From: Rhodothermales bacterium | Lineage (GTDB): Bacteria; Bacteroidota; Rhodothermia; Rhodothermales; Bin80 | Reading direction: 5' to 3' | Assembly: GCA_965218495.1 (NCBI GenBank) | Contig: OZ244626.1 | Location: 2,352,196-2,416,195, forward strand | DNA: 64,000 bases | In this document: in pieces, positions 8,583-26,987 of the stretch | Layout of the letters: the number at the start of each line of letters is the position of its first letter | How positions within the stretch are numbered: position 1 is the first letter of the stretch | Notes under the pieces: model-generated | What the model saw: the letters and a program-made list of their open reading frames with translations, nothing else | Databases searched by the model: none | What the model was told of the DNA's origin: nothing | Program-made: the position numbers and the translations under genes

Positions 8583-10184
8583 ATGAAGCCTGTACTTACG
8601 GCCCAGGCACAGCGCGAAGCTGATCGCCTGACCATCGAGCAATTCGGCCTGCCCGGCCTGACGCTTATGGAAACGGCTGGACGAGCGGCCGCGATGCACA
8701 TCAGCGAAGCGCTGGACCCTATCAAAGACAAGCGCGTGGACATTGTGGCCGGCAAAGGCAACAACGGTGGGGACGGATACGTTGCCGCACGTGCACTCCA
8801 CGCACTGGGCGCACGAGTGCGTGTGTGGGAAGCAGGTGGCATGAATGAGATTTCGGAGGATGCAGCCTACCACCGGCGCCTGCTCGCAACCATCGCCGCC
8901 CGCGCCTTAGCAGACTCTCTTGCGTTGCTTCCTCTGGAAAGCGTGGTGCAATCGCACTCCGATGTCTACGTAGATGCCCTCCTGGGTACGGGGCTTTCGC
9001 GACCGCTTCGGCCTCGACTGGAGCGTGTGGTCCGGTTCCTCAACTCGCAGCCGGCCCCTGTCGTTTCCATAGACATTCCCACAGGGCTGCACGCAGACAC
9101 GGGCATGATACTTGGAGAAGCTGTCGAGGCAGGCTTGACCATTGCCATGGGGACGCTGAAGCCTGGTCACCTGTTAGACTATGGTCCCACCTGCGCTGGC
9201 AGAACCATCCCGGTTGACATTGGCATCCCGAAGCACATTGTGCAAGGCGTTCAGCAGGATTTCGGCAGCACGTGGCAAACCACAGACGCGGGCGTGCAAG
9301 CGCTGCTCCCGCATCGTTCGCACGATGTGCACAAATACAGTGTGGGCATGGTCTTGGTCGTAGGCGGATCTCCGGGCCTAACGGGGGCCGCTGTGATGGC
9401 TTCGCAGGCGGCTGCGCGCGCTGGTGCCGGTTACGTGACCTGTGCCACACATGCGTCCGTGCAGCCTGTGCTGGCCACCAAGCTTACGGCTATTGCTACG
9501 GTTGCCCTGCCGGAAAGTGCACCTGGCGACCTTGACGTAGCAGCAGCACGTGCCTTCCTTCGCGAACCGCTGCGCAAGGCCAAAGCGCTCCTTGTAGGTC
9601 CAGGGCTTGGGCGCGGGCACGGCACAAAGGCCTTTGCGCGCGCTCTCCTCAAAGATTCGGTTCTGCCAGCGGTCTTGGACGCCGATGGCCTCAATAGCTG
9701 GGTCGGACTTGAACATGAGATCGCGCAACATTCACAGGGTCGCTGGATTCTGACGCCACATGCAGGCGAGTTTGGCCGCTTGACAGGAGGCGCCGATACC
9801 TCTGATCGGACTAATGCTGCGCGGATCTGGGCCAAGCGATGGGACTCGGTTGTAGTCGCCAAGGGAATGCCCAGCGTCGTTGGGACGCCCAGTGGTGAAG
9901 TCTATATCTGCGGTGCGGGCAACAGCTCGCTGGCGACGGCCGGGACGGGCGACGTTCTTGCCGGGCTGTGTGCCGGACTGCTGGCCCAGGGACTTTCGCC
10001 TGCGGAATCCGCGGTCGCGGCGCTGCACCTGGGCGGGCTCTGCGCCGACCACTACGCGCGCCTGCATGCGCCCCAGTCCATGGCCGCTACGGACATGCTC
10101 ACCGCTGTGCCGCACGTCCTTAGGGAGCTGTCCACCTCGTTGCACAATAGCGGCAGTACCCAAATAGGCTCGCAAGGCCAGTAG
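8583..10184 (+). CDS. nnr: Bifunctional NAD(P)H-hydrate repair enzyme (epimerase + ADP-dependent dehydratase)
   Basis: The ORF contains YjeF_N (GKGNNGGDGYVAAR) and carbohydrate-kinase (GAGNSSLATAGTGDVLAG) motifs. I chose the ATG at 8583 (MKPVLTAQAQREADRLTIEQ). The track begins at an upstream TTG at 8523. Confidence 0.9.
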   Translation: MKPVLTAQAQREADRLTIEQFGLPGLTLMETAGRAAAMHISEALDPIKDKRVDIVAGKGNNGGDGYVAARALHALGARVRVWEAGGMNEISEDAAYHRRLLATIAARALADSLALLPLESVVQSHSDVYVDALLGTGLSRPLRPRLERVVRFLNSQPAPVVSIDIPTGLHADTGMILGEAVEAGLTIAMGTLKPGHLLDYGPTCAGRTIPVDIGIPKHIVQGVQQDFGSTWQTTDAGVQALLPHRSHDVHKYSVGMVLVVGGSPGLTGAAVMASQAAARAGAGYVTCATHASVQPVLATKLTAIATVALPESAPGDLDVAAARAFLREPLRKAKALLVGPGLGRGHGTKAFARALLKDSVLPAVLDADGLNSWVGLEHEIAQHSQGRWILTPHAGEFGRLTGGADTSDRTNAARIWAKRWDSVVVAKGMPSVVGTPSGEVYICGAGNSSLATAGTGDVLAGLCAGLLAQGLSPAESAVAALHLGGLCADHYARLHAPQSMAATDMLTAVPHVLRELSTSLHNSGSTQIGSQGQ

Positions 10185-10653
10185 AAGCAAGTCGCCAGAT
10201 ACGAGGACGCGCTGTTAGAGCAATTTGGTACCGCGTCATCCTGGAACTAATACTGAGATTGAGATACCCGAGTGACTGCGGGCGGCACGCGGGCCATGGC
10301 ACGGTGACTATCATATTTGCCGCGGAGGGGGAGGACAGCATCATTGCACCCGTGTTCATGCAAGGCATTGGCGGGACCAGTGACCGGAGGCCCTGACGCT
10401 TGGCAAGCCTCGCGCCGCCCAACCCTGATATAGGGACGGAATGGCGGCAAGGGGGGCGAAGGGGGCACCCGACTCAGTACTGGCTGTATCCATTCGAGCA
10501 GCAACGAATTGCGTGGCTACTAGCCCTAAGGCGGCAACTTTTCTTGGAGTTCGTCAACTAACGTCTAAAGGAAGACCTGCCGGGCGCGGCCGTCCTTTGG
10601 CTGTGTCCGCAGCCCTCCCCGGATAGCATCTAACCAATCTGAACACCAGCATC

Positions 10654-11193
10654 ATGACTGTTCGCAAAGTCCCGGAGCTCCCTAACGTCTCGAAGGCGAA
10701 TACTCGTCCCTACGCCCTGTTGTCTATCGCCGCCGTCCTGGCCTGTTTTCTGGCAGTTGCAACAGGGTAAGATAGCTTGGGAATGGAAGAATTCGTACAG
10801 ACCGAGCAGGACCGGAAGCCGCCGCCACCACCGAGCCCTGCAGCACCAGTTGAGATGTCCAATGACCTGGTTCTCGACGGCGAAGTGGGCTCGGAGGTCA
10901 TTTATGTGCGAGCAGAGGATTTGGCTCGGATTCTCGTCGTCGCTAGGGTGGTGACAAGCCAGCTCAGTGATGAAGACATTGAACGGGAGACCAGCGCTGA
11001 AGGTAATGTACCTGTGGGCTTCGTCTTTGACGATCATGTCAAAGTATTGGATGCCCATGAATCCCATGACATCACGGCTGACCTCGAAGAAGATTACCGG
11101 CGTGCGGCAAGCCAAGATTACATTCTTGCAAAAGAGTTACGTCATAGTTTCCAATTTGATGTGAGCCGACTGATTCAGTCAAAGAACGAGTAG
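10654..11193 (+). pseudogene. TonB-derived lipoprotein paralog 1, with the lipobox Cys codon replaced by TAA and a non-TonB_C C-terminal region
   Basis: Manual translation from the ATG at 10654 gives MTVRKVPELPNVSKANTRPYALLSIAAVLACFLAVATG*DSLG. The TAA is at 10768-10770, where the paralogs have TGC/TGT. The same frame continues as track ORF 10777-11193, whose proline-rich segment RKPPPPPSPAAPVEMSNDLVLDGE matches tonB (QKPPPPPRPPVPVEVPNDQVLEDD). Confidence 0.7.
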
Positions 11194-11451
11194 CTGGGAC
11201 GCCAGAAACTGCGCTGCGGCAAAAGGTGTTTGCCCTATTCGCTTCCCGCAGACGAAGGCGCGTCACTTTGGTTGCTGCTCCGGCATGCGCCGGGAGCGTC
11301 TCTACCTCTTCATGAGCATCGGTGTGGTTTTGCCGTTGGCACTGGCCCTAACTGAAGCAGGGGTTACCAGCCTGACCTGATGTTGACTCGCAGTGGCGCG
11401 ACACATCTACCCGGCGTTAGCAAGGTGGTAGTATAACGGCGGACGCGCATT

Positions 11452-11773
11452 CCGTTAATTGGCGGTCACCAAGTCCAGCGGCGCGCTGTACGGCTATTCG
11501 GTACCGTGCCCAACGTAAAAGAAAGCCTCGGATGCCGACATAGCCGCAGGGCGGCCGGTATTCACGAAACGGAAGCAGTCACCTTTTTCGGCTATGAATA
11601 GGATTGCATCGTTATGCCCCAGCCATGCGCCGAACAGCCAGTACCCGTGACCGAGAATCATTAAGTGTGGTGAGCCTCTCAAAGTCGAAATCTGAAAAGA
11701 GGACGGGGTGGCGTTAAATTGGCGAATGAGATTTCCGGCCCAATTCAAGCTCTCCTACCTGCAGTACAAGTAA
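11452..11773 (+). pseudogene. Decayed TonB_C domain remnant
   Basis: Plus-strand fragments in shifting frames: LIGGHQ..., SRRAAGIHETEAVTFFGYE*DCIVMP (compare ARRAGTEGEVLVSFVVDEQGNVVNP), and GVALNWRMRFPAQFKL (compare GEAVKVRMPLPIQFKL). It ends at the TAA at 11771-11773. Confidence 0.55.
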
Positions 11774-11916
11774 GCACATCGGCTGATTGCCGTTAGGCGG
11801 AACCTTTCGAGTCGTTAGTTATCAAATACCACATTGGGTGGCTCGCCGGACGCGGCTTTACTGGTGCACTACCTGGATTCCTAGACGGCAAGTGGTTAAC
11901 CAACCTTTGCAGTAGC

Positions 11917-12426
11917 ATGATGACTCCACGAAAAGACCCCGAGCTTGCTAACGTCTCAAGGGCTAATGCCCGTCCCTTCGTCCTCCTAACGATCGGTGTT
12001 GCCTTGGCTTGTATTCTGGCAGTTACAGCAGGGTGCGATAGCTTGGGAGTAGAAGACTACGTGGAATCCGAGCAGGTTCAGAAGCCGCCATCCCCGCTAA
12101 TACCGGTTGATGCGTCATATGTCCAGCGTCTCGAGGGCGACGTGGACTCGGAAATCTTTGAGGTTGTAGAGGAGATGCCTCAACTTGTCGGTGGCCTAAA
12201 CACGTTGGCAAACCAGATCAGGTATCCTGATGGCGCTGAAGGCACAGCGGTCGTAGTACCTGTCATTGACGAGCAGGACTCCGCGGCCGATGCGGATGTT
12301 TACCGTGAAATTACGGAAGAAATCCGGCTTGCGATTTTGGTACGAATAGCAGAGGCCAGGCTTGAGCAGAGTGCCAACGTGGAGGTAAGAGGTCTAACAA
12401 GCCCGGGCCAGTCTAAGATCGAATAG
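11917..12426 (+). CDS. TonB-derived lipoprotein paralog 2 (truncated/degenerate TonB_C)
   Basis: 169-aa ORF with MMTPRKDPELANVSRANARPFVLLTIGVALACILAVTAGCDSLG (signal + lipobox). EEMPQLVGGLNTLANQIRYPD marks the start of a TonB_C domain, after which the sequence diverges. Confidence 0.6.
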   Translation: MMTPRKDPELANVSRANARPFVLLTIGVALACILAVTAGCDSLGVEDYVESEQVQKPPSPLIPVDASYVQRLEGDVDSEIFEVVEEMPQLVGGLNTLANQIRYPDGAEGTAVVVPVIDEQDSAADADVYREITEEIRLAILVRIAEARLEQSANVEVRGLTSPGQSKIE

Positions 12427-12715
12427 CCCCGGTACCAGAAACCGCTCGACGGCATCAGGTGGTTGCCCTCATCGCATTCTGCAGACGATGGCACGCATCA
12501 TCCTGCCTATCGACTCGAGTCGGGAGCCCGCTTTCCTCTTCTTGATCAATTTCGCTGCAACCCTGCCGCTGGCAATCGTTCTAGTTGCAGCAAGACCCGG
12601 CGCGGGCCTGCACCGGGCGGCACATCTGCCCAGCATGTACAACGAACAAGTAGACCGATAGCCGCGCAGGGCCGGGAGGTAGGTAGCCTCCGAGTACGTT
12701 GGCGTGCATTGCAAA

Positions 12716-12994
12716 GCAGTCGGTGTCTGGCTCAACCTGCTAGCACAGATCAATTACCCAGGCGACTTTGGAACAACGCGTCTTGGGACACGGTAGGGAG
12801 GAGAGCAGTGCAACGGCGACGCTGTAATACGTGGCATTGCGGGTTTCTGCGAGCGGGAATCCGAACGCGTGGAAAGCCTCGCGCAGGCCAAGCCCGTGTA
12901 TCAAGGGAGGAAAGGCGGTAGAGGTTTCGAGTTTGCCTTCCGACCCAGTGCTGGCTCTATCATACGAACAGCAGTGAATTGCGGCACTGACTAA
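12716..12994 (+). pseudogene. Decayed TonB_C domain remnant (probably the former second domain of paralog 2)
   Basis: Manual translation gives AVGVWLNLLAQINYPGDFGTTRLGTR*GGEQCNGDAVIRGIAGFCERESERVESLAQAKPVYQGRKGG.... It is collinear with ...LIGGLRALSSQINYPEIARKAGIEGR...DEQGNV...VVRGIGGGCDEEALRVAQLAKFVPEQQEG of paralog 3. Confidence 0.55.
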
Positions 12995-13128
12995 TTGCCT
13001 CAAGGCGGCAACTTTTCTGGTAGTTCGTCATCTATCCTCTAAAGAAAGGGCTTGCCGGGCGCGGCTGTCCTGTGGCTGTGCCCGAATTCCTACGTGGCTA
13101 GCGCCTAACCAACCTGAACTGTATCATC

Positions 13129-13938
13129 ATGACTCTACGGAAAGATTCCGAGCTCTCTGACGCCTCGAAGGCGCATACCCGTCCCTACTTCCTGCTATCG
13201 GTCGCCGCCGTTCTAGTCTGTATTCTGGCAGTTAAGACAGGGTGTGATAGCTTGGGAGTCTCTGATAAAGAAGCTCAGGTAGACTCGAATATCTATATGG
13301 TTGCGGACGAGATGCCTCGGCTTGTCGGCGGCCTTAGCGCGGTGGCAAGCCAGATCAAGTATCCTGGAATCGCCCGTAAGGCTGGCGTTGAAGGCAGAGT
13401 AGTCGTAAACCTTGTCGTTGACGAGCAGGGCAACGTGTCCGATGCCAGTGTGAGCCGTGGCATCGGAGCTGGCCTCGACCAGGAAGCCTTGCGCGTGGCG
13501 AGCCAGGCTAAGTTCAAGCCTGGACGCCAAGATGGAGAAGCAGTTAAAGTCCGGATGCCTCTCCCGATTCAATTCAAGCTCGATGAGTCAAGTACGCCAG
13601 CAGCAGCGTCGGACGGTGGCGCTGGAAACACAGCCCTGCCGGTGTTTCGCGTTGTAGAATCGACGCCGGAATTAATCGGTGGCCTAAGGGCACTGTCAAG
13701 CCAGATCAACTACCCGGAAATCGCAAGAAAGGCTGGCATTGAAGGAAGGGTGTTTGTCTCATTCGTCGTAGACGAGCAAGGCAATGTCGAGAGTCCTGAG
13801 GTTGTGCGCGGCATTGGCGGTGGGTGTGACGAGGAAGCCCTGCGCGTGGCACAGTTGGCTAAATTCGTTCCAGAACAACAAGAAGGTGAGCCGGTCAGAC
13901 GTCGCATAACAATCCCGATCCAATTCAAGCTCGAATAG
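13129..13938 (+). CDS. Lipoprotein with two tandem TonB C-terminal (TonB_C) domains, paralog 3
   Basis: 269-aa ORF. The N-terminus is RPYFLLSVAAVLVCILAVKTGCDSLG (signal + lipobox Cys). It then carries two units of the form EMPRLVGGL...YP..ARKAGVEGRV.V..VVDEQGNV....V.RGIG.G.D.EALRVA..AKF.PG...G..V...PIQFKL. Confidence 0.85.
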   Translation: MTLRKDSELSDASKAHTRPYFLLSVAAVLVCILAVKTGCDSLGVSDKEAQVDSNIYMVADEMPRLVGGLSAVASQIKYPGIARKAGVEGRVVVNLVVDEQGNVSDASVSRGIGAGLDQEALRVASQAKFKPGRQDGEAVKVRMPLPIQFKLDESSTPAAASDGGAGNTALPVFRVVESTPELIGGLRALSSQINYPEIARKAGIEGRVFVSFVVDEQGNVESPEVVRGIGGGCDEEALRVAQLAKFVPEQQEGEPVRRRITIPIQFKLE

Positions 13939-14659
13939 CGCCGGCGCCAGGAACCGCGTCGTGGCAAAGGGTGGGCTGCCCTCTTCTCTTCGGGCAGAAG
14001 ACGGTGCGCATCACCTTGAGTTCGCACACCGACTCGCGCAATAAATCCCTCCAATGCCGCTTGATGTGAGATATTGTCGCGACCCTGCCGTCGGCATTGG
14101 TGGCAGCAGGGGCACTGGCCTGATGATGACCGGCAGCGCAGCGGCGCAACTGCCGAGCGGGCACACCGTGGCAGTAAGCAGATAGCCGCTCAAAGCCCGG
14201 AGTTGAGGACCGCCAGGGACGTGGACATGCTGCCCAGGCTAGTCGGTGGTGCGTGCCACCACGTGGATAGAAAAGATCAGATTGCTGTGTCGCTGCAAAG
14301 CGGCCCGCTTTCAAGCCAGGAAGGTGAGTATCGTCCTTGTTGTTCATGAGGAAGTCAGCGTCATCGCCCCCGTAGCAAAGGGAGGCATTGCGCATTCCTG
14401 CGAATGGGAACCTTCGAGCAGCTCAAGCCCGAATATTAGGACGAATTGGCAACTATGGCCAGAATCAGCCTTTCAACCCTTTTCAGTATTTTTGAATGGG
14501 CTGATCCGAATGGCGGCATGGCCTTTCGGCCGTAAGGCTGCAACTTTTCTGATCATTCGTTGTGAAACTTCCATAGAATGGCTTACCGGGCACGGCTATC
14601 CTGGGGCAGCGCCCGTAACCCTACCCGACCGGCGTCTACCCCACCTGTGCACTTGCATC
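13939..14659. repeat. Spacer repeat S3, homologous to S4. It contains a heavily decayed TonB_C gene copy plus the leader of paralog 4.
   Basis: It aligns by eye along its whole length with 15482-16121 plus 19960-20038. Plus-strand relics are DMLPRLVGG and AFKPGR. The promoter-like motif is at 14534-14550. Confidence 0.7.
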
Positions 14660-15481
14660 ATGACTCGACGCAAAGATCCCGTGCTCACTGGCGCCTCGAA
14701 GGCAAATTTCCGCCCGTACTTCCTGTTGCCAGTCGCCGCCGCCCTGGTCTGTATCCTGGCCATTGAAACAGGGTGTGATAGCCTTGGAATCGCCAAAGCC
14801 CAGGTGCTTAGCACGCAGAAAGGGGACTCGCTAGTCTATTTGGCCGTGCAGGAGATGCCTCAGCCTATCGGCGGCCTTAGCGCGGTGGCAAGCCAGATCA
14901 AGATTCCTGACACGGCTCGTAAGGAAGGCGTTGAAGGAAAAGTATTCGTAGACATTGTCGTTGACGCGCAGGGAAACGTGTCCGATGCCAAAGTATTACG
15001 TGGGCTCGGGGCAGGTCTTGACGAAGAAATTCTGCGCGTGGTGTTACAGGCCAAGTTCACGCCAGGCCGTCAGGATGGAAAAGCGGTAAAGGTCCGGATG
15101 ACTCTCCCGATATTGTTCAAGCTCAGCGAGTCAAGTGAGCCAGCAGAACCGTCGGATAGCGGTGCTGGAGACGCAGCCCCGCAGGAATTTCGCTTTGTGG
15201 ACCAGAAGCCGGAACTAGTCGGTGGCGCTCGTCAAATACAAGCCCTTATCCATTACCCGGAGAGCGCAAGAAAGGCTCGCATTCAAGGAGATGTGATCGT
15301 CACGTTCGAGGTAGATGAACAAGGCAATGTCGTGAATCCTAAAATTGCGCAGGGCATTGGTGGTGGGTGTGACGAGGAAGCCTTGCGCGTGGTAAGCTTG
15401 GCTAAGTTCGTCCCTGGACAGGACAAAGGAATGCCGGTCAGAACTAGTATGCGAATAACAATTAAGTTTAAGCTCAAATAG
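14660..15481 (+). CDS. Lipoprotein with two tandem TonB_C domains, paralog 4
   Basis: I placed the start at the in-frame ATG at 14660 within track ORF 14246-15481, by homology with paralogs 3 and 5. The N-terminus is MTRRKDPVLTGASKANFRPYFLLPVAAALVCILAIETGCDSLG, followed by two TonB_C units. Confidence 0.85.
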   Translation: MTRRKDPVLTGASKANFRPYFLLPVAAALVCILAIETGCDSLGIAKAQVLSTQKGDSLVYLAVQEMPQPIGGLSAVASQIKIPDTARKEGVEGKVFVDIVVDAQGNVSDAKVLRGLGAGLDEEILRVVLQAKFTPGRQDGKAVKVRMTLPILFKLSESSEPAEPSDSGAGDAAPQEFRFVDQKPELVGGARQIQALIHYPESARKARIQGDVIVTFEVDEQGNVVNPKIAQGIGGGCDEEALRVVSLAKFVPGQDKGMPVRTSMRITIKFKLK

Positions 15482-16121
15482 CGCCGGCACCAGGAACCGC
15501 ATCGTGGCAAAGGGTGGGCTGCCCTCTTCGCTTTGGGCAGCAGAAGGCGCCCATCACCTTGAGTACGCGCAGCGACTCGCGCAAGAAATCCCTCCACTGC
15601 CGCTTGATGCATATTATTGTCGCGACCCTGCCGTTGGAACTATTGGGAGCAGGATGCACGGGCTTCATGATGATCGGCAGCGCGGCGACACAACTGCCGA
15701 GCGTGTACGCGGTGGCGGTAGGCAGATAGCCGCTCAAGGCCGGGAGTTGAGAACCCCGCCAGGGACGTTGACATGCTGTACAGGATAGTCGGTGGCGGGC
15801 CCTACCATATGGGTAGAAAAGATCAGATAGCCGTGTCGCTGCAAAGCGGCCCGCTTTCAAGCCGAGGTGAGGATCACCCTTGCTGTCGATGAGAAAGTCA
15901 GCGTCAACGGCCCGTAGCTATGGGAGGCATTGGGCATTCCTGCGAATGGGAACTCTCGCACAGCTTAGGTCGGATGTTAGGACGAATTGGCAACAATGGC
16001 CAAATTGAGCCTTTCGACCCAGTTCGGTATTTTTGAATGCGCTGAACCGAATGGCGGCATGGCCTTTTGGCCGTAAGGCTGTAACTTTTCTGATCATTCG
16101 TTATAAAACTTCCATAGAATA
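15482..16121. repeat. Spacer repeat S4 (homolog of S3), truncated by the IS insertion at 16121/16122
   Basis: Collinear with 13939-14580. It resumes after the IS at 19960 (gcttaccgggcgcggctatcc..., compare ggcttaccgggcacggctatcc in S3). Confidence 0.7.
16115..16121. repeat. Target-site duplication TAGAATA (left copy) of the IS at 16122-19952
   Basis: TAGAATA immediately flanks both IS ends (16115-16121 and 19953-19959). The uninterrupted homologous site in S3 reads ccatagaatggcttacc. Confidence 0.75.
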
Positions 16122-16362
16122 GTGATTGCCCGAAAAAGGCCTATTGGGAGCAATTTGCGGGCAGATTGTGGGTGGGCGGTAAGCCTGTAGTCGCGGTCAG
16201 GGGTGTGCGCAAGGCGCGCAGCCCCCGAATATGAGTGGATTTGGCACAAAGCCGCGGCCTTCAGCCAGCTTTTCATGCCATTGCACTACAAACACGATAT
16301 AGGTTTGCGCTCTCCCCATTGCAAGGAGTCTGGCTTGCTCCGGTGGCGGCGCTGGTAGGGCC

Positions 16363-16851
16363 CTATTGCGCCCTACTGCGAGTCTGGCGCCACTTTCGTC
16401 GGCGCGCTTCCTTCTGCTTCAGAACCTGACCTATGCGGTGCACATTGGTGGCCACCACTACCAGTGCCAGCGTCCTGTCGAAGCCGGCCTTGCCGTGGGT
16501 GCGCACTAGTGACATGCCCCGGTGATGGAGGTTATTGATCGCCGACTCTACGGCCGGGTGTTGACGCCGGGCTGCCACGAAGTCCAGATGGGTCTCCCGT
16601 TCGCGGTCCGCTTTACGGTGCCGCCCCTTCCGGGGCATCACGTTCAGGTCCAACAACTTGTCAAGCTGCTCGCGATTCTCTGGCGTGTAAAACCCCTTGT
16701 CCATACTGCATGATGCCAGCGCCGGATAGCGCCGCTTCGCCTCTGCAAGGAACGGCACGATCATGTCCTGGTCACCGCCTTCGTGTTGCACGTAGTGGCG
16801 CAGAATGAATTGATGCTGATCCTCCAGCACGCAGACCGGTACCCCAGCACG
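16363..16851 (-). CDS. IS transposase, 3' exon (downstream of the group II intron)
   Basis: This is the in-frame part of track ORF 16363-16968, from RAGVPVCVLEDQHQFILRHYVQHEGGDQD... to the stop. It joins in frame to exon 1 at ...KGKAGVMAEL|RAGVPVCVLEDQ. Confidence 0.7.
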   Translation of the reverse strand, partial: RAGVPVCVLEDQHQFILRHYVQHEGGDQDMIVPFLAEAKRRYPALASCSMDKGFYTPENREQLDKLLDLNVMPRKGRHRKADRERETHLDFVAARRQHPAVESAINNLHHRGMSLVRTHGKAGFDRTLALVVVATNVHRIGQVLKQKEARRRKWRQTRSRAQ

Positions 16852-18768
16852 GTAGGGACCCGAGTCTCCCCGAGCCCCCCGTACAGATCCGGACGTGCGC
16901 GCTAACGCATCCGGCTCCTCCCTCGGGTTGCGCTGGCGCGCGTGACGGTAAACCGTGCATCCGGCCATGGGTGTCGAATTGCAAGCTTCGGCCAGTAAGT
17001 CGCAGTGAGCATGTCCATATCTTTCCGCGACGTACGATCCCTCTGAGATCGCCGCCGCAGGACGCGCATCCAGATCCAGTGGAGCCGCCTACAACAGCGC
17101 TGGAGGTAGGGGAAACTCGTCGGTACGGCATAGTAGTTCAGTCAACCATTAAGCACCTGCCCCAACCATTGGCCCGTTTCACGCACCTTTCGGTGCCTTC
17201 GCCGGATCAATTGCTCCTTCACCCGCTTCAGAAAGCGGACCATCCGTTTGGCAATCGGTTTACGACCCAAGCCAAAGCGTCCTTTTCGAGTTCTACGGCA
17301 ATAATGCGTGAAACCCAAGAAATCGAACGTCTCTGGTCGGCCTTCACCTCGTCTCTTGCGGTCTTCCTCGGCGAGACGCCCAAATGCTAACAGGCGTGTT
17401 TTGCCAGGATGCAAACTCAGCCCAAACTTCTCGAGTCGAGCTTGCAGTTCACGCATGAAACGCGTTGCCTCCCTTCTGTACTGGAAACACACCACGAAAT
17501 CGTCCGCATAGCGGACGATGTATACCTCCCCCTCACACCGACGTGATTGGCGCCACTTCTGAACCCACAGGTCTAGCACGTAATGGAGATAGATGTTGGC
17601 CAGAATCGGGGAGATGACCGCGCCTTGCGGCGTGCCCACTTCGCTGTCCTGCCGTACACCCTCTACCATCACTCCCGCATTCAACCATTTAATGATCAGC
17701 CGTATCACGCGCTTATCCCCGATACGATGCTCCAAGAAGCGGATTAACCACCCCTGGTCTACCGTGTCAAAGAACTTGCGTATGTCGGCGTCCACAGTGT
17801 AGTTGACCTTGCGACGCTCAATCACAAAGGCCAAGGCGTCCAGCGCGTTGTGCGCGCTGCGCTTCGGCCTGAACCCATAACTGAAACCGCGAAACTCCGC
17901 CTCGTAAATCGGCGTCAGGATGCATTTCACCACGGCCATCTGGACGATCTTGTCCTCCAATGCTGCAATGCCGAGCGGTCGTGTACCGCCGTCCGGCTTG
18001 GGTATCTCTACCCGCCTGGACGGGGTCGCCCGATACGCACCGCTATGTACGCGCCGGCAAAGATCTGCCAGACGGACTTCCAGTCCTTCCGCGTACGCCT
18101 TCCACGTCATGCCGTCCACGCCGGGGGCTGCATCGCGCTTAAGCGCGAGGAAAGCCGTCTGGAGTGACTCTACATTGATGTGGTGCAGTAGCGTCGTGAG
18201 ACGTTCCTGTGAGTTTCGCTTCACGAACTCCCGTAACCGCTCAGTCCCCTGGGACACGCGCGCCCATTTCTGCGCATGGTGCGTGTGAGGACCTCGCGGT
18301 TTCCCCTTGGGTGATCCCCTTCGCTCCCGCCACTCCGCCGGAGCGTTCGCTCCTTTGTTCGCAGCGCTCATCGCTCGTATGGGATCATCTGACTTCTTCA
18401 ACTCGTGCATCTCCGGTTACGGCGCAAGCGCCTTTCCTTTGCGGCCCCGCACGACCGCGGGGCGAGTTGAAGACCTCCCAGGTCCCAGCAGGATATGTAC
18501 ATGCGTCCATGGGTCCCGGACACCGTGGGCCTGTCCGCCGTCTCACCATAGCGATGACGAACATGTTGCCTTCGACCGAGCTGAAAGCCTCGGCGACCCA
18601 GATTACATGTTTTTCGGTGCTCAATAACCCTGGCCACACGCACCGCTACCGACGCTTCGCGCCCACCCTCACGGGTGGCCACGCACGGCTCGCGGAGATA
18701 TGTACCTGGTTTCAGTTTCATAACACGGGACTTTCACCCGCTATATCCGGCCAGTTAGCCTGGCGCAC
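16852..18768 (-). mobile_element. Bacterial group II intron (1917 nt) inserted in the IS transposase gene
   Basis: The minus strand starts GTGCGCC at 18768. A domain V-like sequence GAGCCGGATGCGTTAGCGCGCACGTCCGGATC lies near 16885-16920. The intron ends ...GGGTCCCTAC at 16852 and encodes an RT/maturase. Removing it restores the transposase frame. Confidence 0.8.
17142..18410 (-). CDS. Group II intron reverse transcriptase/maturase, ending at a premature TGA (probably a pseudogene)
   Basis: 422-aa ORF with RT motifs (GTPQGAVISPILANIYL, VRYADDFVVCF). It stops at ...GQVLNG*, and the same frame continues LNYYAVPTSFPYL... to a TAG at 16902-16904. The TGA therefore replaces the conserved Trp of the G-W-x-N-Y-Y maturase motif. 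Confidence 0.85.
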   Translation of the reverse strand: MHELKKSDDPIRAMSAANKGANAPAEWRERRGSPKGKPRGPHTHHAQKWARVSQGTERLREFVKRNSQERLTTLLHHINVESLQTAFLALKRDAAPGVDGMTWKAYAEGLEVRLADLCRRVHSGAYRATPSRRVEIPKPDGGTRPLGIAALEDKIVQMAVVKCILTPIYEAEFRGFSYGFRPKRSAHNALDALAFVIERRKVNYTVDADIRKFFDTVDQGWLIRFLEHRIGDKRVIRLIIKWLNAGVMVEGVRQDSEVGTPQGAVISPILANIYLHYVLDLWVQKWRQSRRCEGEVYIVRYADDFVVCFQYRREATRFMRELQARLEKFGLSLHPGKTRLLAFGRLAEEDRKRRGEGRPETFDFLGFTHYCRRTRKGRFGLGRKPIAKRMVRFLKRVKEQLIRRRHRKVRETGQWLGQVLNG

Positions 18769-19710
18769 CAACTCTGCCATCACGCCCGCTTTCCCTTTGT
18801 TGATCCAGCGCGTGTGGGGCTCGTGCACGGAGAAAAGCTTCTGGCCGTGCGGAATCTTCTCGCCCTGGATCAAACGGCGCGACACCTGGTCTATCAGTTG
18901 CTCTCCAGTCCGCAAATACCACGACACCTCCGCGCTTTCAACATCGTTTTGCCTCAATATCGCCTGCGTGGCCGCTGCCTTCGACACGATAGTGCGGCAA
19001 AGTGCCAGGTAGTTTGCCACTTTCGACATGCTGCGCCACTGCCGGGAAGTGCGCACGCGATAAAAGGCGCGCTCCATTTTCTTGATCCAGGCCTGCGACT
19101 TGCACCAGCCCGCTATCGCATGCTTTTGGCACAGACGTGCCAGCTTCCTGATCAGACGGCGCAGCGCATCCCACAGCAAACGTGCATCGGTGGGCCACTC
19201 CACATGGGTCTTTGCAACCGCTGAGTCGGCCCGGCAGTGAAGCGGATCCGATGACCTGTGCTTCAACAGCTGATGCCCACGGGCCACCACCACCGCATTG
19301 ATCTGCCGCAGCGCTTCCTCGGTAAGCAGACTCACGTTGTCAATAACGGTCTGCAGGCGATACTGGTGCTTATCTCCAAAATCTGCATGCCCCAGCATCT
19401 GGCGCAGCGCCGTGTGAAAGTTCGCCAATTCCACCAGACGGTCGAAGTCGCAGTCAAGCGCCTTCTGCAGCGTGCCCAGCACGAAGATCCGCCACAGACA
19501 CAGCCCGGGGCAACCACGCCGCAAATTGACCTTCGCGCCTAACTGCTCCCGCAGAATCGCGAACACCCGCTCGCGGGTCTCGCGGTGCGTGAAGATGTCC
19601 TGCAGTCCACGGAGCACGGCCGGAATATCGTCTCTGGACCGAGCGTCAAAGCTGATCTCTCCAATGGGCGTGTGCCCAAGCTCAAACTGTGGCTCAAAGA
19701 TCGCGCGCAT
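18769..19710 (-). CDS. IS transposase, 5' exon (upstream of the group II intron)
   Basis: This is the first 314 codons of track ORF 18718-19710, ending ...FSVHEPHTRWINKGKAGVMAEL. The remaining 16 codons of that ORF are intron read-through. Confidence 0.7.
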
Positions 19711-19952
19711 GGCAGTAAATCGGGCGAATGTTGGGGCAGAAGCGTACTAATCACGCCAATAACGGTACTAAGATCGGAAAACGGCGCAACATTCGCTAAA
19801 ACAACGCAGGCAGCCGTTGGGGAAACTGCCCCGAAAACAGCCGCTCGACACTCCAAAATGCCCGATTTTCCGCCGCACGCGCCCGTACATCCGCCCTATG
19901 CGCCCAAGACTGCCGGTCTGCAGAGCCGATCAGGCATTTTTCGGGCAAGCAC

Positions 19953-19959
19953 TAGAATA
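19953..19959. repeat. Target-site duplication TAGAATA (right copy)
   Basis: See 16115-16121. Confidence 0.75.
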
Positions 19960-20038
19960 GCTTACCGGGCGCGGCTATCCTGAGGCAGCGCCCGTAACCC
20001 TACCCGACCGGCGTCAACCCCACCTGTGCACTTGCATC

Positions 20039-20884
20039 ATGACTCGACGCAAAGATCCCGTGCTCACTGGCGCCTCGAAGGCAAATTTCCGCCCGTACTT
20101 CCTGTTGTCGGTCGTCGCCGCCCTGGTCTGTATCCTGGCCCTTGAAACTGGGTGCGGTAGCCTTGGAATCGCCGAAACCCAGGTGCTCAGCATGCAGAAA
20201 GGGGACTCGCTAGTCTATTTGGCCGTGGAGGAGCTGCCTCAGCCTATCGGCGGCCTGGGCGCGCTGGCAGGCCAAATCAAGATTCCTGATACGGCATGGG
20301 AGGCTGGCGTTGAAGGAAAAGTGTTACTGGACATTGTCGTTGACCAGCAGGGCAACGTGTCCGATGCCAAAGTATCACTTGGGCTCGGGGCAGGGCTTGA
20401 CGCAGAAGCCCTACGGGTGGTGTTACAGGCCTAGTTCACGCCTGGCCGTCAGGATGGAAAAGCAGTCAAGGTCCGGATGACTCTCCCGATACCGTTCAAG
20501 CTCAGCGAGTCAAGTGAGCCAGCAGAACCGTCGGATAGCGGAGCTGGTGACGCAGCCCCGCAGGAATTTCGCATACTTGACCAGCTGCCAAGACTAGTTG
20601 GTGGCCTCCGCGCACTGTCTCGCCAAATCAATTACCCGGAAAGCGCACGAAGGGCTGGCACTGAAGGGGAGGTACTTGTCTCATTCGTCGTAGACGAGCA
20701 AGGCAATGTCGTGAATCCTAAGATTGAGCAGGGCATTGGCGGTGGGTGTGACGAGGAAGCACTGCGTGTAATACGCTTGGCTAGGTTCATTCCTGGACAA
20801 CAAAAGGATGGTGTGCCGGTAAAGGTTAGAATTGCTATCCCGATCCAGTTTAAGCTTGGGCGCGGATATGGGCTCCGTTTCTAA
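20039..20884 (+). pseudogene. Dual TonB_C lipoprotein paralog 5, with an in-frame TAG and separated from its upstream motif by the IS
   Basis: Track ORFs 20039-20434 and 20477-20884 share one frame. The TAG at 20432-20434 sits where paralogs 3 and 4 have AAG (caggccTAGttcacgcc versus caggccAAGttcacgcc in paralog 4; LQA*FTPGRQDGKAVKV). Confidence 0.8.
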
Positions 20885-21544
20885 ATGAGAATGGTGCAAT
20901 AGCCTCGCCTTCCCTTGGCTGCGCGACCAGTCCACCGCGATCGGTCCTGAGATGTCATAGCTAGTCAGCGGATCTCCCCCGCAAGACCTCAAATGCCGGT
21001 CCCTACCTTAGGATGAGGATTGCTGCAGGCCTGCTCTTCACATCGTTGCATAAGCCGGAATGTGCCAGCCCGGATGCATCGGCTGGGCAAACACGCAGAA
21101 TAGGCCAACGGGCGCAAGCTAAGAGCAAAGCTAGCGTCAAAGCCTACCCGGCAATCATGTTCGAAAAAGCCGATCCCCTCCCCAGCGAGTGGCCGGTAGC
21201 AGACAGCAAGCGAACAGAGTTCGCCCACGCCCTTGCCACAGAGTATGGAAGGACTCCGAAACCAGTCGGTGGATGGCATCAGCGGCAACTCGGTAGCGCA
21301 GCCAGCGCTGATTCGCGCCAGCTTGGACTCACGCTTGGATGTGCAGCTGGACAACCCAGCCCTACAAGAGTGTAGATGTCATCGCTCGCAACGCAACGGC
21401 TACGCCGCAATTTTTGGATGGGGCGCAACTTTTCTGTGCGAACGTGTTCTAATGATAGTAGAGAGCGCACAAAACCTTCCCACCGTGTCGTCTAGTGCAC
21501 TATCTTCTACACGTTAGCGTCTAACCAACCTATTGTGAACCATC

Positions 21545-22207
21545 ATGGCATTGCGTAAATCTCCTATGGCTGACCTTCGGCAGTGGTACGGCATGTCCGT
21601 TCAGGTCGGCATGGCTATCGCTCTTTTGCTCCTCGTCTTCGCCTTTAGCGCCAATCTCGATCGTGGCGACACGATGAATCTCGAGCAGCTCGACCAAGAG
21701 GTGGTGCAGATGGAAGAGATCCTGCAAACTAAGCAGATCCAGAAGCCGCCGCCACCGCCGCGCCCGCCCGTACCTGTTGAGGTGCCCAATGACCAGGTCC
21801 TAGAAGACGACGATCTGGACCTTGACGCTTCGCTAGACATTGATGAGCCGCTTTCGGCCCTGCCGCCTCCGCCACTAGCCGAGGAAGAGGAAGAAGAGCC
21901 GGAGCCTGAGATCTTCACGGTCGTAGAGGAGCAACCCGCGCTCATCGGCGGGCCCGCTGCGTTGCAGACCAATCTCAAGTACCCTGAAATCGCCCGTAAG
22001 GCTGGCGTTGAAGGCAGAGTATTCGTCCAGTTTGTCGTTGACAAGCAGGGCAACGTGTCCGATGCCGCGGTGGTCCGCGGCATCGGGGCAGGCTGTGACC
22101 AAGAAGCCCTCCGCGTGATTAGCCAGGCTAAATTCACACCCGGACGTCAGCGGGGCAAAGCGGTAAAGGTCCAGATGACCGTTTTTATTCAGTTTAGGCT
22201 GCGATAG
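21545..22207 (+). CDS. tonB: Energy transducer TonB (canonical architecture)
   Basis: 220-aa ORF with an N-terminal TM anchor (VQVGMAIALLLLVFAF), a proline-rich spacer (QKPPPPPRPPVPVEVP), an acidic linker and one TonB_C domain. Confidence 0.85.
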   Translation: MALRKSPMADLRQWYGMSVQVGMAIALLLLVFAFSANLDRGDTMNLEQLDQEVVQMEEILQTKQIQKPPPPPRPPVPVEVPNDQVLEDDDLDLDASLDIDEPLSALPPPPLAEEEEEEPEPEIFTVVEEQPALIGGPAALQTNLKYPEIARKAGVEGRVFVQFVVDKQGNVSDAAVVRGIGAGCDQEALRVISQAKFTPGRQRGKAVKVQMTVFIQFRLR

Positions 22208-22286
22208 CGCGCACCAACTGCGCAAAATCGCCCTGTAGCCACATGGCTGCAGGGCGCTTTTTCTTGTGGCTAACCGGCCGGGTCAG

Positions 22287-22976
22287 CTACCACGCGTGGT
22301 GCTCGCAGCCGCCATCCATCGTTCCCATGAGCACATCGGTGGCCATACCTACAAAGAGGCCATGGTCAAGCACACCCGGGGTGCGCAGCAGTGCCACATC
22401 CAGTGCAGACGGGTCACTGATCTGCTGGAAGAAAGCATCAACAATCCAGAGTCCCTGATCCGTCACCACCGGTCCGTCTTTGCGTACACCCATGCGCAAT
22501 TCCGGGCGTCCACCGAGCCCGGAAAGCGCACGCATGACCGGGCCCACGGCCATCGGCAAGACCTCCACTGGCACGGGCATGTGGATGCCAAGCCTTGAAA
22601 CGCGCTTGGAGGCATCAATTAGCACGACGAAACGTGTGGCTAGGGCCGCGACAACCTTTTCGCGCGTGTGTGCTGCGCCGCGCCCTTTGATGAGATTGCC
22701 CTCCGGGTCAACCTCATCAGCCCCATCCAAGGCAATGTCAAGACGCTGAATGTCTTCCAGCCCGATAAGGGGAATATGATGCTCGCGCGCCAGTCGCTCC
22801 GCAGCACTGGACGTCGGTGTCCCTACGATCTGAAGCCCTTCGTCGCGAATCCTTCGCCCGAGTGCTGCTACAGCGAATGCCGTAGTAGAACCGGTCCCCA
22901 GTCCGATGCGCTGTCCGTCCTCGACCAGCATCGCCGCAGCCTCACCCGCGGCTTTTTTGGCAGCATCCTGTCCCAT
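22287..22976 (-). CDS. rpiA: Ribose-5-phosphate isomerase A
   Basis: 229-aa ORF with GLGTGSTTAFAV, DGADEVDPEGNLIKGRGAAHTREK. Confidence 0.9.
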   Translation of the reverse strand: MGQDAAKKAAGEAAAMLVEDGQRIGLGTGSTTAFAVAALGRRIRDEGLQIVGTPTSSAAERLAREHHIPLIGLEDIQRLDIALDGADEVDPEGNLIKGRGAAHTREKVVAALATRFVVLIDASKRVSRLGIHMPVPVEVLPMAVGPVMRALSGLGGRPELRMGVRKDGPVVTDQGLWIVDAFFQQISDPSALDVALLRTPGVLDHGLFVGMATDVLMGTMDGGCEHHAW

Positions 22977-22981
22977 GGGCG

Positions 22982-24202
22982 CTATTCGTGCCGTAGCGCC
23001 TCAATAGGATCAAGCCCTGCTGCCTTGTAGGCTGGGTACACTCCGAAGATCAGCGCGATGCCAGTTACGCCACCTACGGCCACAAGAGCCCAAAGCCACG
23101 GAAAGACAAATGGTGTCTTGGCAAAATACCCCACCAAGTTGCCACCTCCGGCACCCGCCAGGATTCCGATGATCCCCCCAATCTGGCACAGAAACATCGC
23201 CTCGTAGAGAAACTGGCGCAAGACGTCTCGCCTGCGGGCACCTACTGCCTTTCGTATGCCAATTTCGCGTGTGCGCTCCGTCACAGAAACCAGCATAATA
23301 TTCATGATTCCAATGCCAGCGGCCAAGAGCGTGATCAGGCCTATTGCAGCCCCGCCCTTGGCAATGCTGTTGGTAAACTTGGTAATCTCGCCGACAATGC
23401 CTTCGTTGCTGACGATTTCGAAATTATTTTCTTCACCCGGTTTGACGCGCCGGATGACGCGCAACAGGCCAATGGATTCCTCCATGGTTGCATCCAGCAT
23501 TTGCATGTTGACAGCGCGGACTTTGATTTGCACGTCCCAATTGGAGCCGCCATACAGCATGATCATGCGCGTAATTGGCACGATTGACAGCATGTCAAAG
23601 TTCTGGCCAAACACCTCTCCCTTTTCTTCAAGCACACCTACAACCTGGTATCGGTTGCCACTCAGGATGACATCCTTGCCGATGGGCGTTTCGGTCGGAA
23701 ACAGCTCGTCAGCCAAGTCATAGCCTATCACGGCCACAGGGCGCGAGAGATGAACATCCTGTTCCGTCAGAAACCGCCCCTGAGACATTTCGAAGCCATT
23801 GTTGCCCAGAAAATGCTGGTTTGATCCGATGAAAATCACTACCGGATCAGTCTCCTTGTTACGATACCGTGCCTCAACCATCCATCCTCCCATGGAAGCA
23901 CTCACGGCCGCAGGCAATACGCTGCGCTGGGCAAGCTGCTCCATCTGCCTGTAGGTAAGCCGCTGGCGGCCACGGACGCCGGTGCCGCTTCGCGAAAAAG
24001 TATCCCTGCGTTCAACCGAATAGGTCGTTGACCCAAAGGATTCTACCGCAGTGGTGGCACTGGATTTGATGACCTCAACAGCGGTTACCGCCACTATGAT
24101 GGCAAAGACCCCAATTACCATGCCCAGCAGCGTGAGCGCCGAACGGAGCTTGTGACTGCGCACGGTTTCCCATGCCAACCGAATGAATTCAAATTTGATC
24201 AT
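22982..24202 (-). CDS. ABC transporter permease, MacB-like (periplasmic domain + FtsX), copy A1
   Basis: 406-aa ORF with an N-terminal TM helix (LRSALTLLGMVIGVFAIIVAV) and C-terminal FtsX motifs (SVTERTREIGIRKAVGARRRDV). Confidence 0.85.
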   Translation of the reverse strand: MIKFEFIRLAWETVRSHKLRSALTLLGMVIGVFAIIVAVTAVEVIKSSATTAVESFGSTTYSVERRDTFSRSGTGVRGRQRLTYRQMEQLAQRSVLPAAVSASMGGWMVEARYRNKETDPVVIFIGSNQHFLGNNGFEMSQGRFLTEQDVHLSRPVAVIGYDLADELFPTETPIGKDVILSGNRYQVVGVLEEKGEVFGQNFDMLSIVPITRMIMLYGGSNWDVQIKVRAVNMQMLDATMEESIGLLRVIRRVKPGEENNFEIVSNEGIVGEITKFTNSIAKGGAAIGLITLLAAGIGIMNIMLVSVTERTREIGIRKAVGARRRDVLRQFLYEAMFLCQIGGIIGILAGAGGGNLVGYFAKTPFVFPWLWALVAVGGVTGIALIFGVYPAYKAAGLDPIEALRHE

Positions 24203-24207
24203 GGCCT

Positions 24208-25437: not shown

Positions 25438-25760
25438 GACTAGGCTGGCTAATTCTCGGTGATAAAGCGCCGGGGCTATGGCTACAGGACCGCTGCACAA
25501 CGCATGATCCTCGCCTGAAACGCAGCTTCCAAGCTAATGATCGCGAAATATAGGAAAGAACGACAGCCTGTTCACGAGGCCATGCATGCAGGACTCAGGA
25601 GCAACGACTCCCATGGGATCAGCGCACTTGAATTAGCCTCTCGGGCTCGCCTGACTGCAAATGCCACGCGGCCCGCATCCGTGACAGCCTACTTCGGGCC
25701 TACTTATGTGCTCGCTGCTTTATCGTTCTGGGAAAGGCGGGTCACCGGTAGCTTTGCGTC

Positions 25761-26984: not shown

Positions 26985-26987
26985 GGC

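Follow-up and report, generated by a model that had tools for sequence, protein, structure and literature searches.

A tandem array of tonB-derived genes encoding doubled TonB_C domains beside tonB in a Rhodothermales bacterium

Organisation of the tonB-family array

The stretch of DNA analysed in this work (the window) comprises 64,000 nucleotides from the metagenome-assembled genome of a Rhodothermales bacterium (assembly GCA_965218495.1, contig OZ244626.1, positions 2,352,196 to 2,416,195), and window coordinates are used throughout. The window contains an array of tonB-family genes that spans the interval from the end of the Nnr (YjeF) gene at 10184 to rpiA (22287-22976, - strand), in a context of chromosomal housekeeping genes. 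The array consists of six co-oriented genes on the + strand, which are five paralogs (par1 to par5) followed by the canonical tonB. An earlier note on this DNA, made from the sequence alone, had described six co-oriented genes that share ancestry with tonB. Both the strand calls and the DNA-level identity to the C-terminal domain (CTD) and spacer of tonB bear this out, and the array is not a chance resemblance.

The canonical tonB (21545-22207, + strand) encodes 220 amino acids that form an N-terminal anchor, a Pro-rich spacer, and one TonB_C domain. The anchor exhibits the clade signature KADLR..Y...VQVGM..ALLLL..AF. Two of the paralogs are intact and carry two TonB_C domains each. The par3 gene (13129-13938, + strand) encodes 269 amino acids with a hydrophobic helix at residues 20-38, the motif KTGC39-DSLG, and two TonB_C domains (residues 56-152 and 173-269) that are separated by a 20-residue linker. 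The par4 gene (14660-15481, + strand) encodes 273 amino acids with the same layout, the motif ETGC-DSLG, and two TonB_C domains.

The other three paralogs read as relics. The par5 gene (20039-20884, + strand) is a two-domain copy that is inactivated by a single AAG>TAG change at 20432-20434. The par2 gene (11917-12426, + strand) encodes 169 amino acids with the motif AVTAGC, the short Pro remnant QKPPSP, and one truncated and degenerate TonB_C domain. The par1 gene (10654-11193, + strand) is a pseudogene with a signal or anchor region, an in-frame TAA, the Pro-rich piece QDRKPPPPPSP, and a strongly degenerate domain derived from TonB_C. The TAA lies at 10768-10770, exactly at the Cys-codon position of the other copies. 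An independent assembly that is 99.7% identical (L079) carries both the par1 TAA and the par5 TAG, and assembly errors were therefore rejected as the source of these stop codons.

Descent from tonB and turnover of the array

The paralogs derive locally from the neighbouring tonB. Domain 1 of par3 and the tonB CTD share 80% DNA identity over 203 bp. The Pro-rich piece of par1 (10783-10883) and the tonB segment at 21710-21810 share 76% DNA identity, so that par1 does retain the TonB-like spacer that the earlier note had ascribed to it. The duplicated unit is about 1.53 kb long and consists of a gene and a spacer of about 720 bp. The segments 12976-14579 and 14508-16120 are 78% identical over 1.6 kb, and the spacers that follow par3 and par4 likewise share 78% identity.

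Each long spacer contains colinear, same-strand, frameshifted TonB_C remnants, with best E-values of 0.005-0.04 within the region. The decayed remnants, all on the + strand, lie upstream of par1 (10253-10387; local domain hidden Markov model (HMM) E=0.042, tblastn E=9e-5), in the par1-par2 spacer (11640-11755; a C-terminal remnant, ...RMRFPAQFKLS, local domain HMM E=0.027), in the par2-par3 spacer (12710-12904; local domain HMM E=0.005, and tblastn), in the par3-par4 spacer (14221-14404; ...MLPRLVGG..., where the local HMM matches are individually weak, colinear, and on the same strand), and in the spacer after par4 (15782-15952; local domain HMM and tblastn). Because the spacers hold these further remnants, the array has lost more copies than the five that are recognisable.

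A terminator-like hairpin followed by CAACTTTTCT (14519-14549, + strand) recurs about 130 bp upstream of paralog start codons and opens each conserved leader. Further sites were identified at 12995-13020 and 16059-16092, with related sequence near 10528-10550. Position 10528, which had been taken as the start of the first gene, belongs to this conserved leader, and the par1 open reading frame (ORF) begins at 10654. Terminator hairpins are no more numerous in the region than expected from shuffled sequence (12 vs 11.2), and only their repeated position is notable. The promoter scan of the region also gave a count at the shuffled expectation (5 vs 5.0). The Rfam scan of 9500-23000 (E≤0.1) identified only the group II intron that is described below, and neither the conserved leaders nor the spacers gave a match to a riboswitch or other known RNA.

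The loci related to the window array are all from Rhodothermales. The array is also present in the sister genome L001, whose tonB is 95% identical. It comprises six paralogs there, and the L001 par1 is intact with the motif LAVATGC. One paralog copy in L001 has collapsed to a single hybrid domain. The L001 copy that adjoins tonB (14213-15055 of that locus) is the positional ortholog of par5 and carries a nonsense codon different from that of par5, and both copies share the C-terminal extension G[RS]G[YF]GLRF. The two sequences suggest that the tonB-adjacent copy was lost independently in the two genomes. The par3 and par4 genes are intact in two to three genomes. In the genome L002, the par3 ortholog lies away from tonB and adjoins a transposase fragment, and a one-domain TonB_C protein with the motif MVSGC is encoded upstream of tonB (locus L028). 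In L003, whose tonB is 80% identical, a single two-domain gene with the canonical lipobox MLIGC lies directly upstream of tonB.

In the neighbour-joining tree of the domains, domain 1 of the window, L001, and L002 copies forms one clade (78% bootstrap) and domain 2 forms another (90%). Because of these separate clades, the internal doubling is taken to be older than the gene duplications in the window lineage. In most other lineages (P0037, P0040, P0043, P0045, P0060, and P0089), the two domains of one protein are mutual nearest relatives with 77-100% bootstrap, which implies either repeated independent doublings or homogenisation of the domains (concerted evolution). The turnover of the array involves tandem duplication, domain loss, nonsense mutation, and decay. 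The birth-and-death dynamics that had been proposed for this family stand and are wider than proposed, with nonsense mutations, domain loss, spacer remnants, and differences between sister genomes.

The ratio of nonsynonymous to synonymous rates (dN/dS) was estimated by the Nei-Gojobori method against the L001 orthologs, with 95% confidence intervals (CIs) from a codon bootstrap. The dN/dS of tonB is 0.17 (CI 0.06-0.34). The values of par3 (0.48, CI 0.32-0.73) and par4 (0.35, CI 0.24-0.52) have CIs that exclude 1, and both genes are constrained but fast-evolving, with ratios two to three times higher than that of the canonical gene. The most constrained part of par3 is its N-terminal 55 codons (dN/dS 0.17), and its domain 2 is near neutral (0.87, from few sites). 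Both par1 (0.72, CI 0.43-1.28) and par2 (0.91, CI 0.59-1.75) evolve nearly neutrally, with CIs that include 1, and look like relics.

These values bear on the explanation that the array is evolutionary debris, in which tandem tonB duplicates are drifting to loss and no copy is functional now. Such decay is already true for par1, par2, and par5. It accords with the two stop codons, the near-neutral ratios of par1 and par2, the decayed TonB_C fragment in every spacer, the insertion sequence (IS) element that separates par5 from its leader, and the nonsense codon and the collapsed copy in L001. For par3 and par4 it is contradicted by purifying selection and by cross-genome conservation. Both genes also have high HMM scores and a confident fold in both domains (see below), and the architecture is kept across Bacteroidota and Rhodothermota and recurs beside tonB in distant lineages. 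We regard debris as a decidedly improbable account of the intact genes.

The TonB_C domains of the paralogs

The two tandem TonB_C domains that had been noted in the intact copies are confirmed by HMM scores and by predicted fold. Against Pfam PF03544 (cut-off 24.6 bits), par3 scores 157.7 bits (E=1e-46) and par4 scores 136.2 bits, each in two stretches, and tonB scores 78.3 bits. The two halves of par5 score 31.3 and 74.3 bits against the same model. Against TIGR01352 (cut-off 27.1 bits), par3 and par4 score 124.6 and 110.6 bits. Both par1 and par2 fall below every library threshold in the Pfam and NCBIfam scans (for par2, Pfam gave no match at 0.01). Their domains were identified only with the local domain HMM, at 10912-11118 in par1 (E=2e-5) and at 12157-12357 in par2 (E=2e-10).

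The NCBIfam model NF038079 (myxochelin receptor MxcH) is matched by the paralog domains over its N-terminal ~90 residues. This match shows that some TonB-dependent receptors bear an N-terminal TonB_C-like domain, which is another anchor-free context of TonB_C.

The AlphaFold2 model of par3 was built with an alignment of 43 sequences. Its mean predicted local distance difference test (pLDDT) score is 83, both domains exceed 93, residues 39-50 and 154-175 are disordered, and the predicted template modelling (pTM) score is 0.45. In this model, par3 consists of two well-folded TonB CTD folds on flexible linkers, with no fixed mutual arrangement, similar to beads on a string. The Foldseek search of the model against PDB gave the TonB CTD bound to FoxA as the best match (6i97_D, TM-score 0.82), followed by 1u07, 2gsk_B, and 2grx_C, and the matches include TonB CTDs in complex with FoxA, BtuB, and FhuA. 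The earlier note had suggested structure prediction as a check, and both domains of par3 are modelled as TonB CTD folds that retain the final strand. Among the 34 positions with at least 90% conservation across 71 canonical CTDs, 26-31 are unchanged in the paralog domains, which also retain the last strand.

The N-terminal region of the paralogs

The anchor profile was built from the N-termini of 32 canonical Rhodothermales TonBs and has the consensus MALRKTDKADLRKRYPLYVQVGLILALLLLILAFR. Held-out tonB genes score 62-66 bits (window tonB 62.6) and the window paralogs score -3.1 to +2.9 bits. The near-invariant polar Q/E-x-G and AF[RK] motifs of the clade TonB anchor are missing from the paralogs. 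Their hydrophobic stretch is 16 residues long and that of tonB is 21. Because of the score near 0 bits, the shorter hydrophobic stretch, and the missing Q/E-x-G, the N-terminal anchor of the paralogs is, by these sequence features, not equivalent to that of TonB. The spacer differs as well. In par3 to par5, the distance from the Cys to domain 1 is about 16-20 residues with no Pro run, and about 20 residues lie between the domains, compared with about 90 residues in the Pro-rich spacer of tonB. The Pro piece is kept only in the relics (QKPPPPP in par1 and QKPPSP in par2).

In agreement with the earlier note, the paralogs contain the motifs ILAVKTGC, AIETGC, and AVTAGC followed by DSLG. The Cys motif that had been assigned to five paralogs is found in four of them, and in par1 a stop codon occupies the Cys position, with the L001 ortholog intact. 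The lipobox pattern PROSITE PS51257, {DERK}(6)-[LIVMFWSTAG](2)-[LIVMFYSTAGCQ]-[AGS]-C after the hydrophobic region, is matched by par2 (AVTAGC), L001 par1 (AVATGC), the positional ortholog in L003 (MLIGC), and the tonB neighbour in L028 (MVSGC). The G-C-D-S-L-G context is conserved in the orthologs of three genomes, and a 52%-identical relative has KMGC. This context and the strong constraint on the region favour lipidation of Cys39, which is likely but less clear than the loss of the TonB anchor, as par3 to par5 depart from the pattern at -3 (see below). In either case, N-terminal tethering with the domains in the periplasm is expected for the paralog. An Asp at +2, as in CDSLG, is an inner-membrane retention signal in E. 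coli, a rule that may not be that of Rhodothermota.

Distribution of multi-domain relatives

Relatives with two or three TonB_C domains were identified in Rhodothermales, Draconibacterium, Ignavibacteria, and Chitinophaga. The N-termini were surveyed among the best 120 database relatives, of which 80 have at least two domains and a classifiable N-terminus. In this set, TonB-like or long hydrophobic anchors occur in about 30 proteins, ordinary signal peptides in about 23, canonical lipoboxes in 13, and lipobox-like motifs in 9. The combination of two or three TonB_C domains with one of these N-termini is frequent among proteins of Bacteroidota and Rhodothermota, and the window genes are members of a widespread class without an assigned role.

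Another Rhodothermaceae contig (L080, 2553-8857) carries the syntenic Nnr...rpiA-MacB locus with genes for a 221-aa TonB, an amine oxidase, a 379-aa protein, and a 228-aa TonB. The 379-aa protein has a TonB-like anchor and three TonB_C domains. The Rhodothermaceae 379-aa proteins resemble par3 in that they are about 50% identical to it, lie in the same Nnr...rpiA locus, and have tandem TonB_C domains with no Pro-rich spacer. They differ in having a TonB-like anchor of 21-23 residues and no Cys motif. These transmembrane-anchored multi-domain relatives score 9-30 bits with the anchor profile. The three-domain proteins could plausibly span the periplasm and be energised, and in the L080 protein the tandem TonB_C domains may replace the Pro-rich rod as the periplasmic spacer. 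The Nnr...rpiA-MacB locus appears to be a hotspot of TonB-family diversification. Full-length, Pro-rich canonical tonB genes also often stand in tandem pairs or triplets in Rhodothermales and Bacteroidia, where nine such loci were recorded.

In Draconibacterium (L085/L086, 4284-7666; L004, 5962-7446), a two-domain TonB_C protein with an ordinary signal peptide is encoded 28 bp after tonB. It is followed by a gene for a BlaI-like repressor and then by a gene for an M56 peptidase-TonB_C sensor. The neighbourhoods of four distant relatives (P0037, P0045, P0049, and L002) exhibit no conserved partner genes.

Comparison with known proteins and proposed role

TonB depends on three parts: its anchor contacts ExbB/ExbD, its spacer extends to the outer membrane, and its CTD pairs with the TonB box (PMC7014051; PMC10350073). 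The canonical TonB of the window and the paralogs are homologous and share the CTD fold, most invariant residues, the locus, and the orientation. The paralogs differ in that they lack the anchor signature, and the intact copies lack the Pro-rich spacer and have a doubled CTD and a Cys motif after a short hydrophobic stretch.

We propose that par3 and par4, and relatives elsewhere, are tethered to a membrane, bind TonB boxes without being energisable, and so modulate TonB-dependent transport. This reading is tentative, and we judge its chance to be slightly below even. The proteins would be exported and held at the membrane by the N-terminus, most likely through a lipid on Cys39 or else through an uncleaved short signal anchor. 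Each intact paralog would display two independent TonB CTDs on short flexible linkers. Because the TonB anchor signature and the periplasm-spanning Pro-rich spacer are lost, the paralogs would be unable to transmit the proton-motive force. Because the domain that binds TonB boxes keeps its fold and most of its invariant residues, non-productive binding would be the most likely activity. The targets would be the TonB boxes of TonB-dependent transporters, or TonB/ExbD periplasmic partners. TonB-dependent uptake, and the entry routes that rely on the uptake system, would then be tuned or blocked. A part in specificity tuning or in conflict would suit the fast evolution and the copy turnover. The decoy or competitor role that the earlier note had suggested is an inference. 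A copy tethered at the inner membrane would hardly be able to reach the outer membrane with linkers of about 16 and 20 residues, and a copy tethered at the outer membrane would sit where the TonB boxes emerge. The proposed role is supported by the constraint on the par3 N-terminus, by the conserved Cys context, by the lipoboxes beside tonB in L003 and L028, and by the common occurrence of relatives with signal peptides or lipoboxes.

Several findings weigh against this proposal, and the first of them concern the N-terminus. The PS51257 pattern is not matched at -3 in par3 (K) and in par4 and par5 (E). The Cys is replaced by W in two L001 copies (ETAW for ETGC), one of which is an intact two-domain gene. 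Residues 20-38 of par3 are modelled by AlphaFold2 as a helix, which is a potential uncleaved anchor, and an uncleaved signal anchor of 16-19 residues may be present instead of a cleaved signal peptide. The loss of the anchor signature is also not proof of lost ExbBD coupling. The earlier note had stated that the TonB anchor is replaced by a lipoprotein signal peptide. The loss of the anchor signature (-3 to +3 bits) agrees with that statement, and its second part, cleavage and lipidation, is not established, given the K or E at -3 and the W in place of Cys.

The same findings bear on the alternative that the paralogs are energised TonBs, in which an uncleaved anchor docks on ExbB/ExbD or a TolQR-like motor and the extra TonB_C domain serves as a spacer or as a second receptor site for transporter subsets. 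The 19-residue helix of par3, the non-canonical lipobox, and the Trp in the intact L001 copy speak for this alternative. The closest multi-domain relatives, the 379-aa proteins of the same Nnr...rpiA locus, keep a TonB-like anchor with 9-30 bits, and Bacteroides species use several TonB paralogs with differing transporter preferences (PMC10350073). However, the anchor profile gives about 0 bits for the paralogs, Q/E-x-G is absent, and the hydrophobic stretch has 16 residues where tonB has 21. Two domains with linkers of 16 and 20 residues fall well short of the reach of the spacer in tonB, with its about 90 residues. Different genomes share the Cys context, and the L003 positional ortholog has a canonical lipobox. 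Ordinary cleavable signal peptides, which would not permit coupling to a motor, occur in many relatives. Energised paralogs are thus considered quite unlikely.

The second group of findings against non-productive TonB-box binding concerns the domains and the gene context. All six paralog domains of par3 to par5 have D, E, or K in place of the near-invariant Arg of PGxQRG (for example at 13540-13550 and 13891-13901). This Arg is at least 90% conserved in the 71 canonical CTDs and its site precedes the strand that pairs with the TonB box. In domain 1 of par4, par5, and their L001 orthologs, the YP motif is replaced by IP and the Tyr is gone. The Arg and Tyr replacements may have altered or abolished TonB-box binding. 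In addition, neither the genes called within ±10 kb nor the large window ORFs that were checked include a transporter, exbB, or exbD gene.

Such replacements, which are specific to this family and affect CTD positions that hardly vary elsewhere, suggest that the partner is modified. They fit an envelope-organising or chaperone-like role, in which the paralogs tether the outer membrane to transporters or peptidoglycan, cluster transporters bivalently, or keep TonB boxes available to TonB as a positive accessory. Bivalent bridging would be well served by two independent, flexibly linked domains, and the fold is shared with the TolA C-terminal domain (Foldseek ranks 18-23). No pal genes have been detected in Bacteroidetes, where other tethering systems have been proposed (PMC12204202). 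However, a structural component of the envelope would not usually show such rapid turnover, such varied copy number, or so many pseudogenes, and the array adjoins tonB and not envelope-biogenesis genes. This role is regarded as unlikely.

The proposal that par3 and par4 bind TonB boxes without energising them can be compared with known inhibitors. In E. coli, iron import by TonB-dependent transporters has been reported to be inhibited when a periplasmic TonB domain is overexpressed (Howard 2001, as cited in PMC9841981). Such engineered fragments are similar to the paralogs in being exported TonB CTDs without an energised anchor, and they offer a functional model for the proposed mechanism. They are laboratory constructs with one soluble domain, whereas the window proteins are natural, have two domains, are predicted to be membrane-tethered, and are under selection. 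The phage T5 protein Llp is a small lipoprotein of the inner leaflet of the outer membrane that inactivates FhuA from the periplasmic side (PMC9586334; bioRxiv 10.64898/2026.03.26.714494). Lipoproteins of the Llp/Cor type provide a precedent for decoy or protection through the blocking of a TonB-dependent transporter as an entry route. This likeness concerns mechanism only, as those proteins are phage-encoded with no sequence or fold relation, and the window proteins are chromosomal with a TonB CTD fold. No close relatives of the paralogs were found in the viral contig collection, and a phage origin was rejected.

A bolder form of the proposal is that par3 and par4 are natural anti-TonB lipoproteins at the periplasmic face of the outer membrane, whose two CTDs occupy the TonB boxes of transporters. 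We consider this form unlikely. If it is true, these proteins would gate which receptors are energised, or would shut the TonB-dependent entry of phages and bacteriocins. The turnover of the array would then be a footprint of conflict, and exported multi-TonB_C proteins would control TonB-dependent transport widely across Bacteroidota and Rhodothermota, at a level that has gone unrecognised.

A dual TonB_C domain has already been recorded for TonB9 (BT3896, 285 aa) and TonB10 (BT3898) of Bacteroides thetaiotaomicron, to which no function has been assigned. TonB9 resembles par3 and par4 in having two PF03544 domains in one polypeptide and a similar size. The Draconibacterium two-domain gene beside the BlaI/M56-TonB_C pair resembles the tonB9/tonB10 neighbourhood. 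The window genes differ in forming a tandem array beside tonB, and they have a lipobox-like motif. The domain doubling may have arisen repeatedly across lineages, and the relation to TonB9 was compared by architecture only. The literature search on lipidated or tandem TonB_C proteins identified no tested function and returned only the paper on B. thetaiotaomicron TonB homologs and a preprint on myxobacterial Glt. This is consistent with the view that no function had been described for the architecture, although the architecture itself is already on record (TonB9/TonB10) and common. Apparently missing from the literature that was searched are a statement that many such proteins, without the TonB anchor and spacer, would be unable to act as energy transducers, an account of their recurrent adjacency to tonB, and a description of the birth-and-death array.

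TonB-dependent transporters dominate nutrient uptake in Bacteroidota and Rhodothermota, and the findings in this work bear on how TonB paralogs are shared among transporters. If exported, non-energisable TonB-domain proteins do bind TonB boxes, they would act as the cell's own regulators of this uptake system or as decoys that protect it, the natural counterpart of dominant-negative TonB fragments that are known only from the laboratory. The locus is a compact test case with an intact tonB, two intact two-domain paralogs, graded relics, and orthologous arrays in sister genomes that permit evolutionary comparison. The annotation "energy transducer TonB" by TonB_C match should also be read with care, as it includes many proteins without energy-transducing features.

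Mobile elements and neighbouring genes

An IS element (about 16126-19944, - strand) lies between par4 and par5. It has imperfect terminal inverted repeats of about 20 bp and an 8-bp target duplication, TAGAATAG. The element is inserted in the spacer, ending about 90 bp before the par5 ATG, and cuts par5 off from its leader. The earlier note had listed an IS-disrupted copy among the paralogs. No paralog ORF is interrupted, and a split ORF was rejected because the IS flanks join seamlessly onto spacer sequence with the 8-bp duplication. The DDE transposase ORF of the element (18718-19710 + 16363-16968) is itself interrupted by a group II intron (about 16810-18734), which is a mobile element nested in a mobile element. 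The intron parts consist of the Rfam D1-D4 match at 18511-18734 (159 bits), D5 at 16847-16919, and a reverse transcriptase ORF at 17142-18410. In the independent assembly L079, the corresponding region (15642-16486 vs window 16864-18768) has about 0.85-1.3 kb extra with duplicated intron segments. The reverse transcriptase ORF has 499 amino acids in L079 and 422 in the window, and the cause is either the assembly or variation between strains.

Four consecutive MacB_PCD/FtsX permease genes (22982-28223, - strand) lie directly downstream of rpiA. Two adjoining ORFs of Mutator-family transposases, with 422 and 329 amino acids, are located at 38473-40727 on the - strand.

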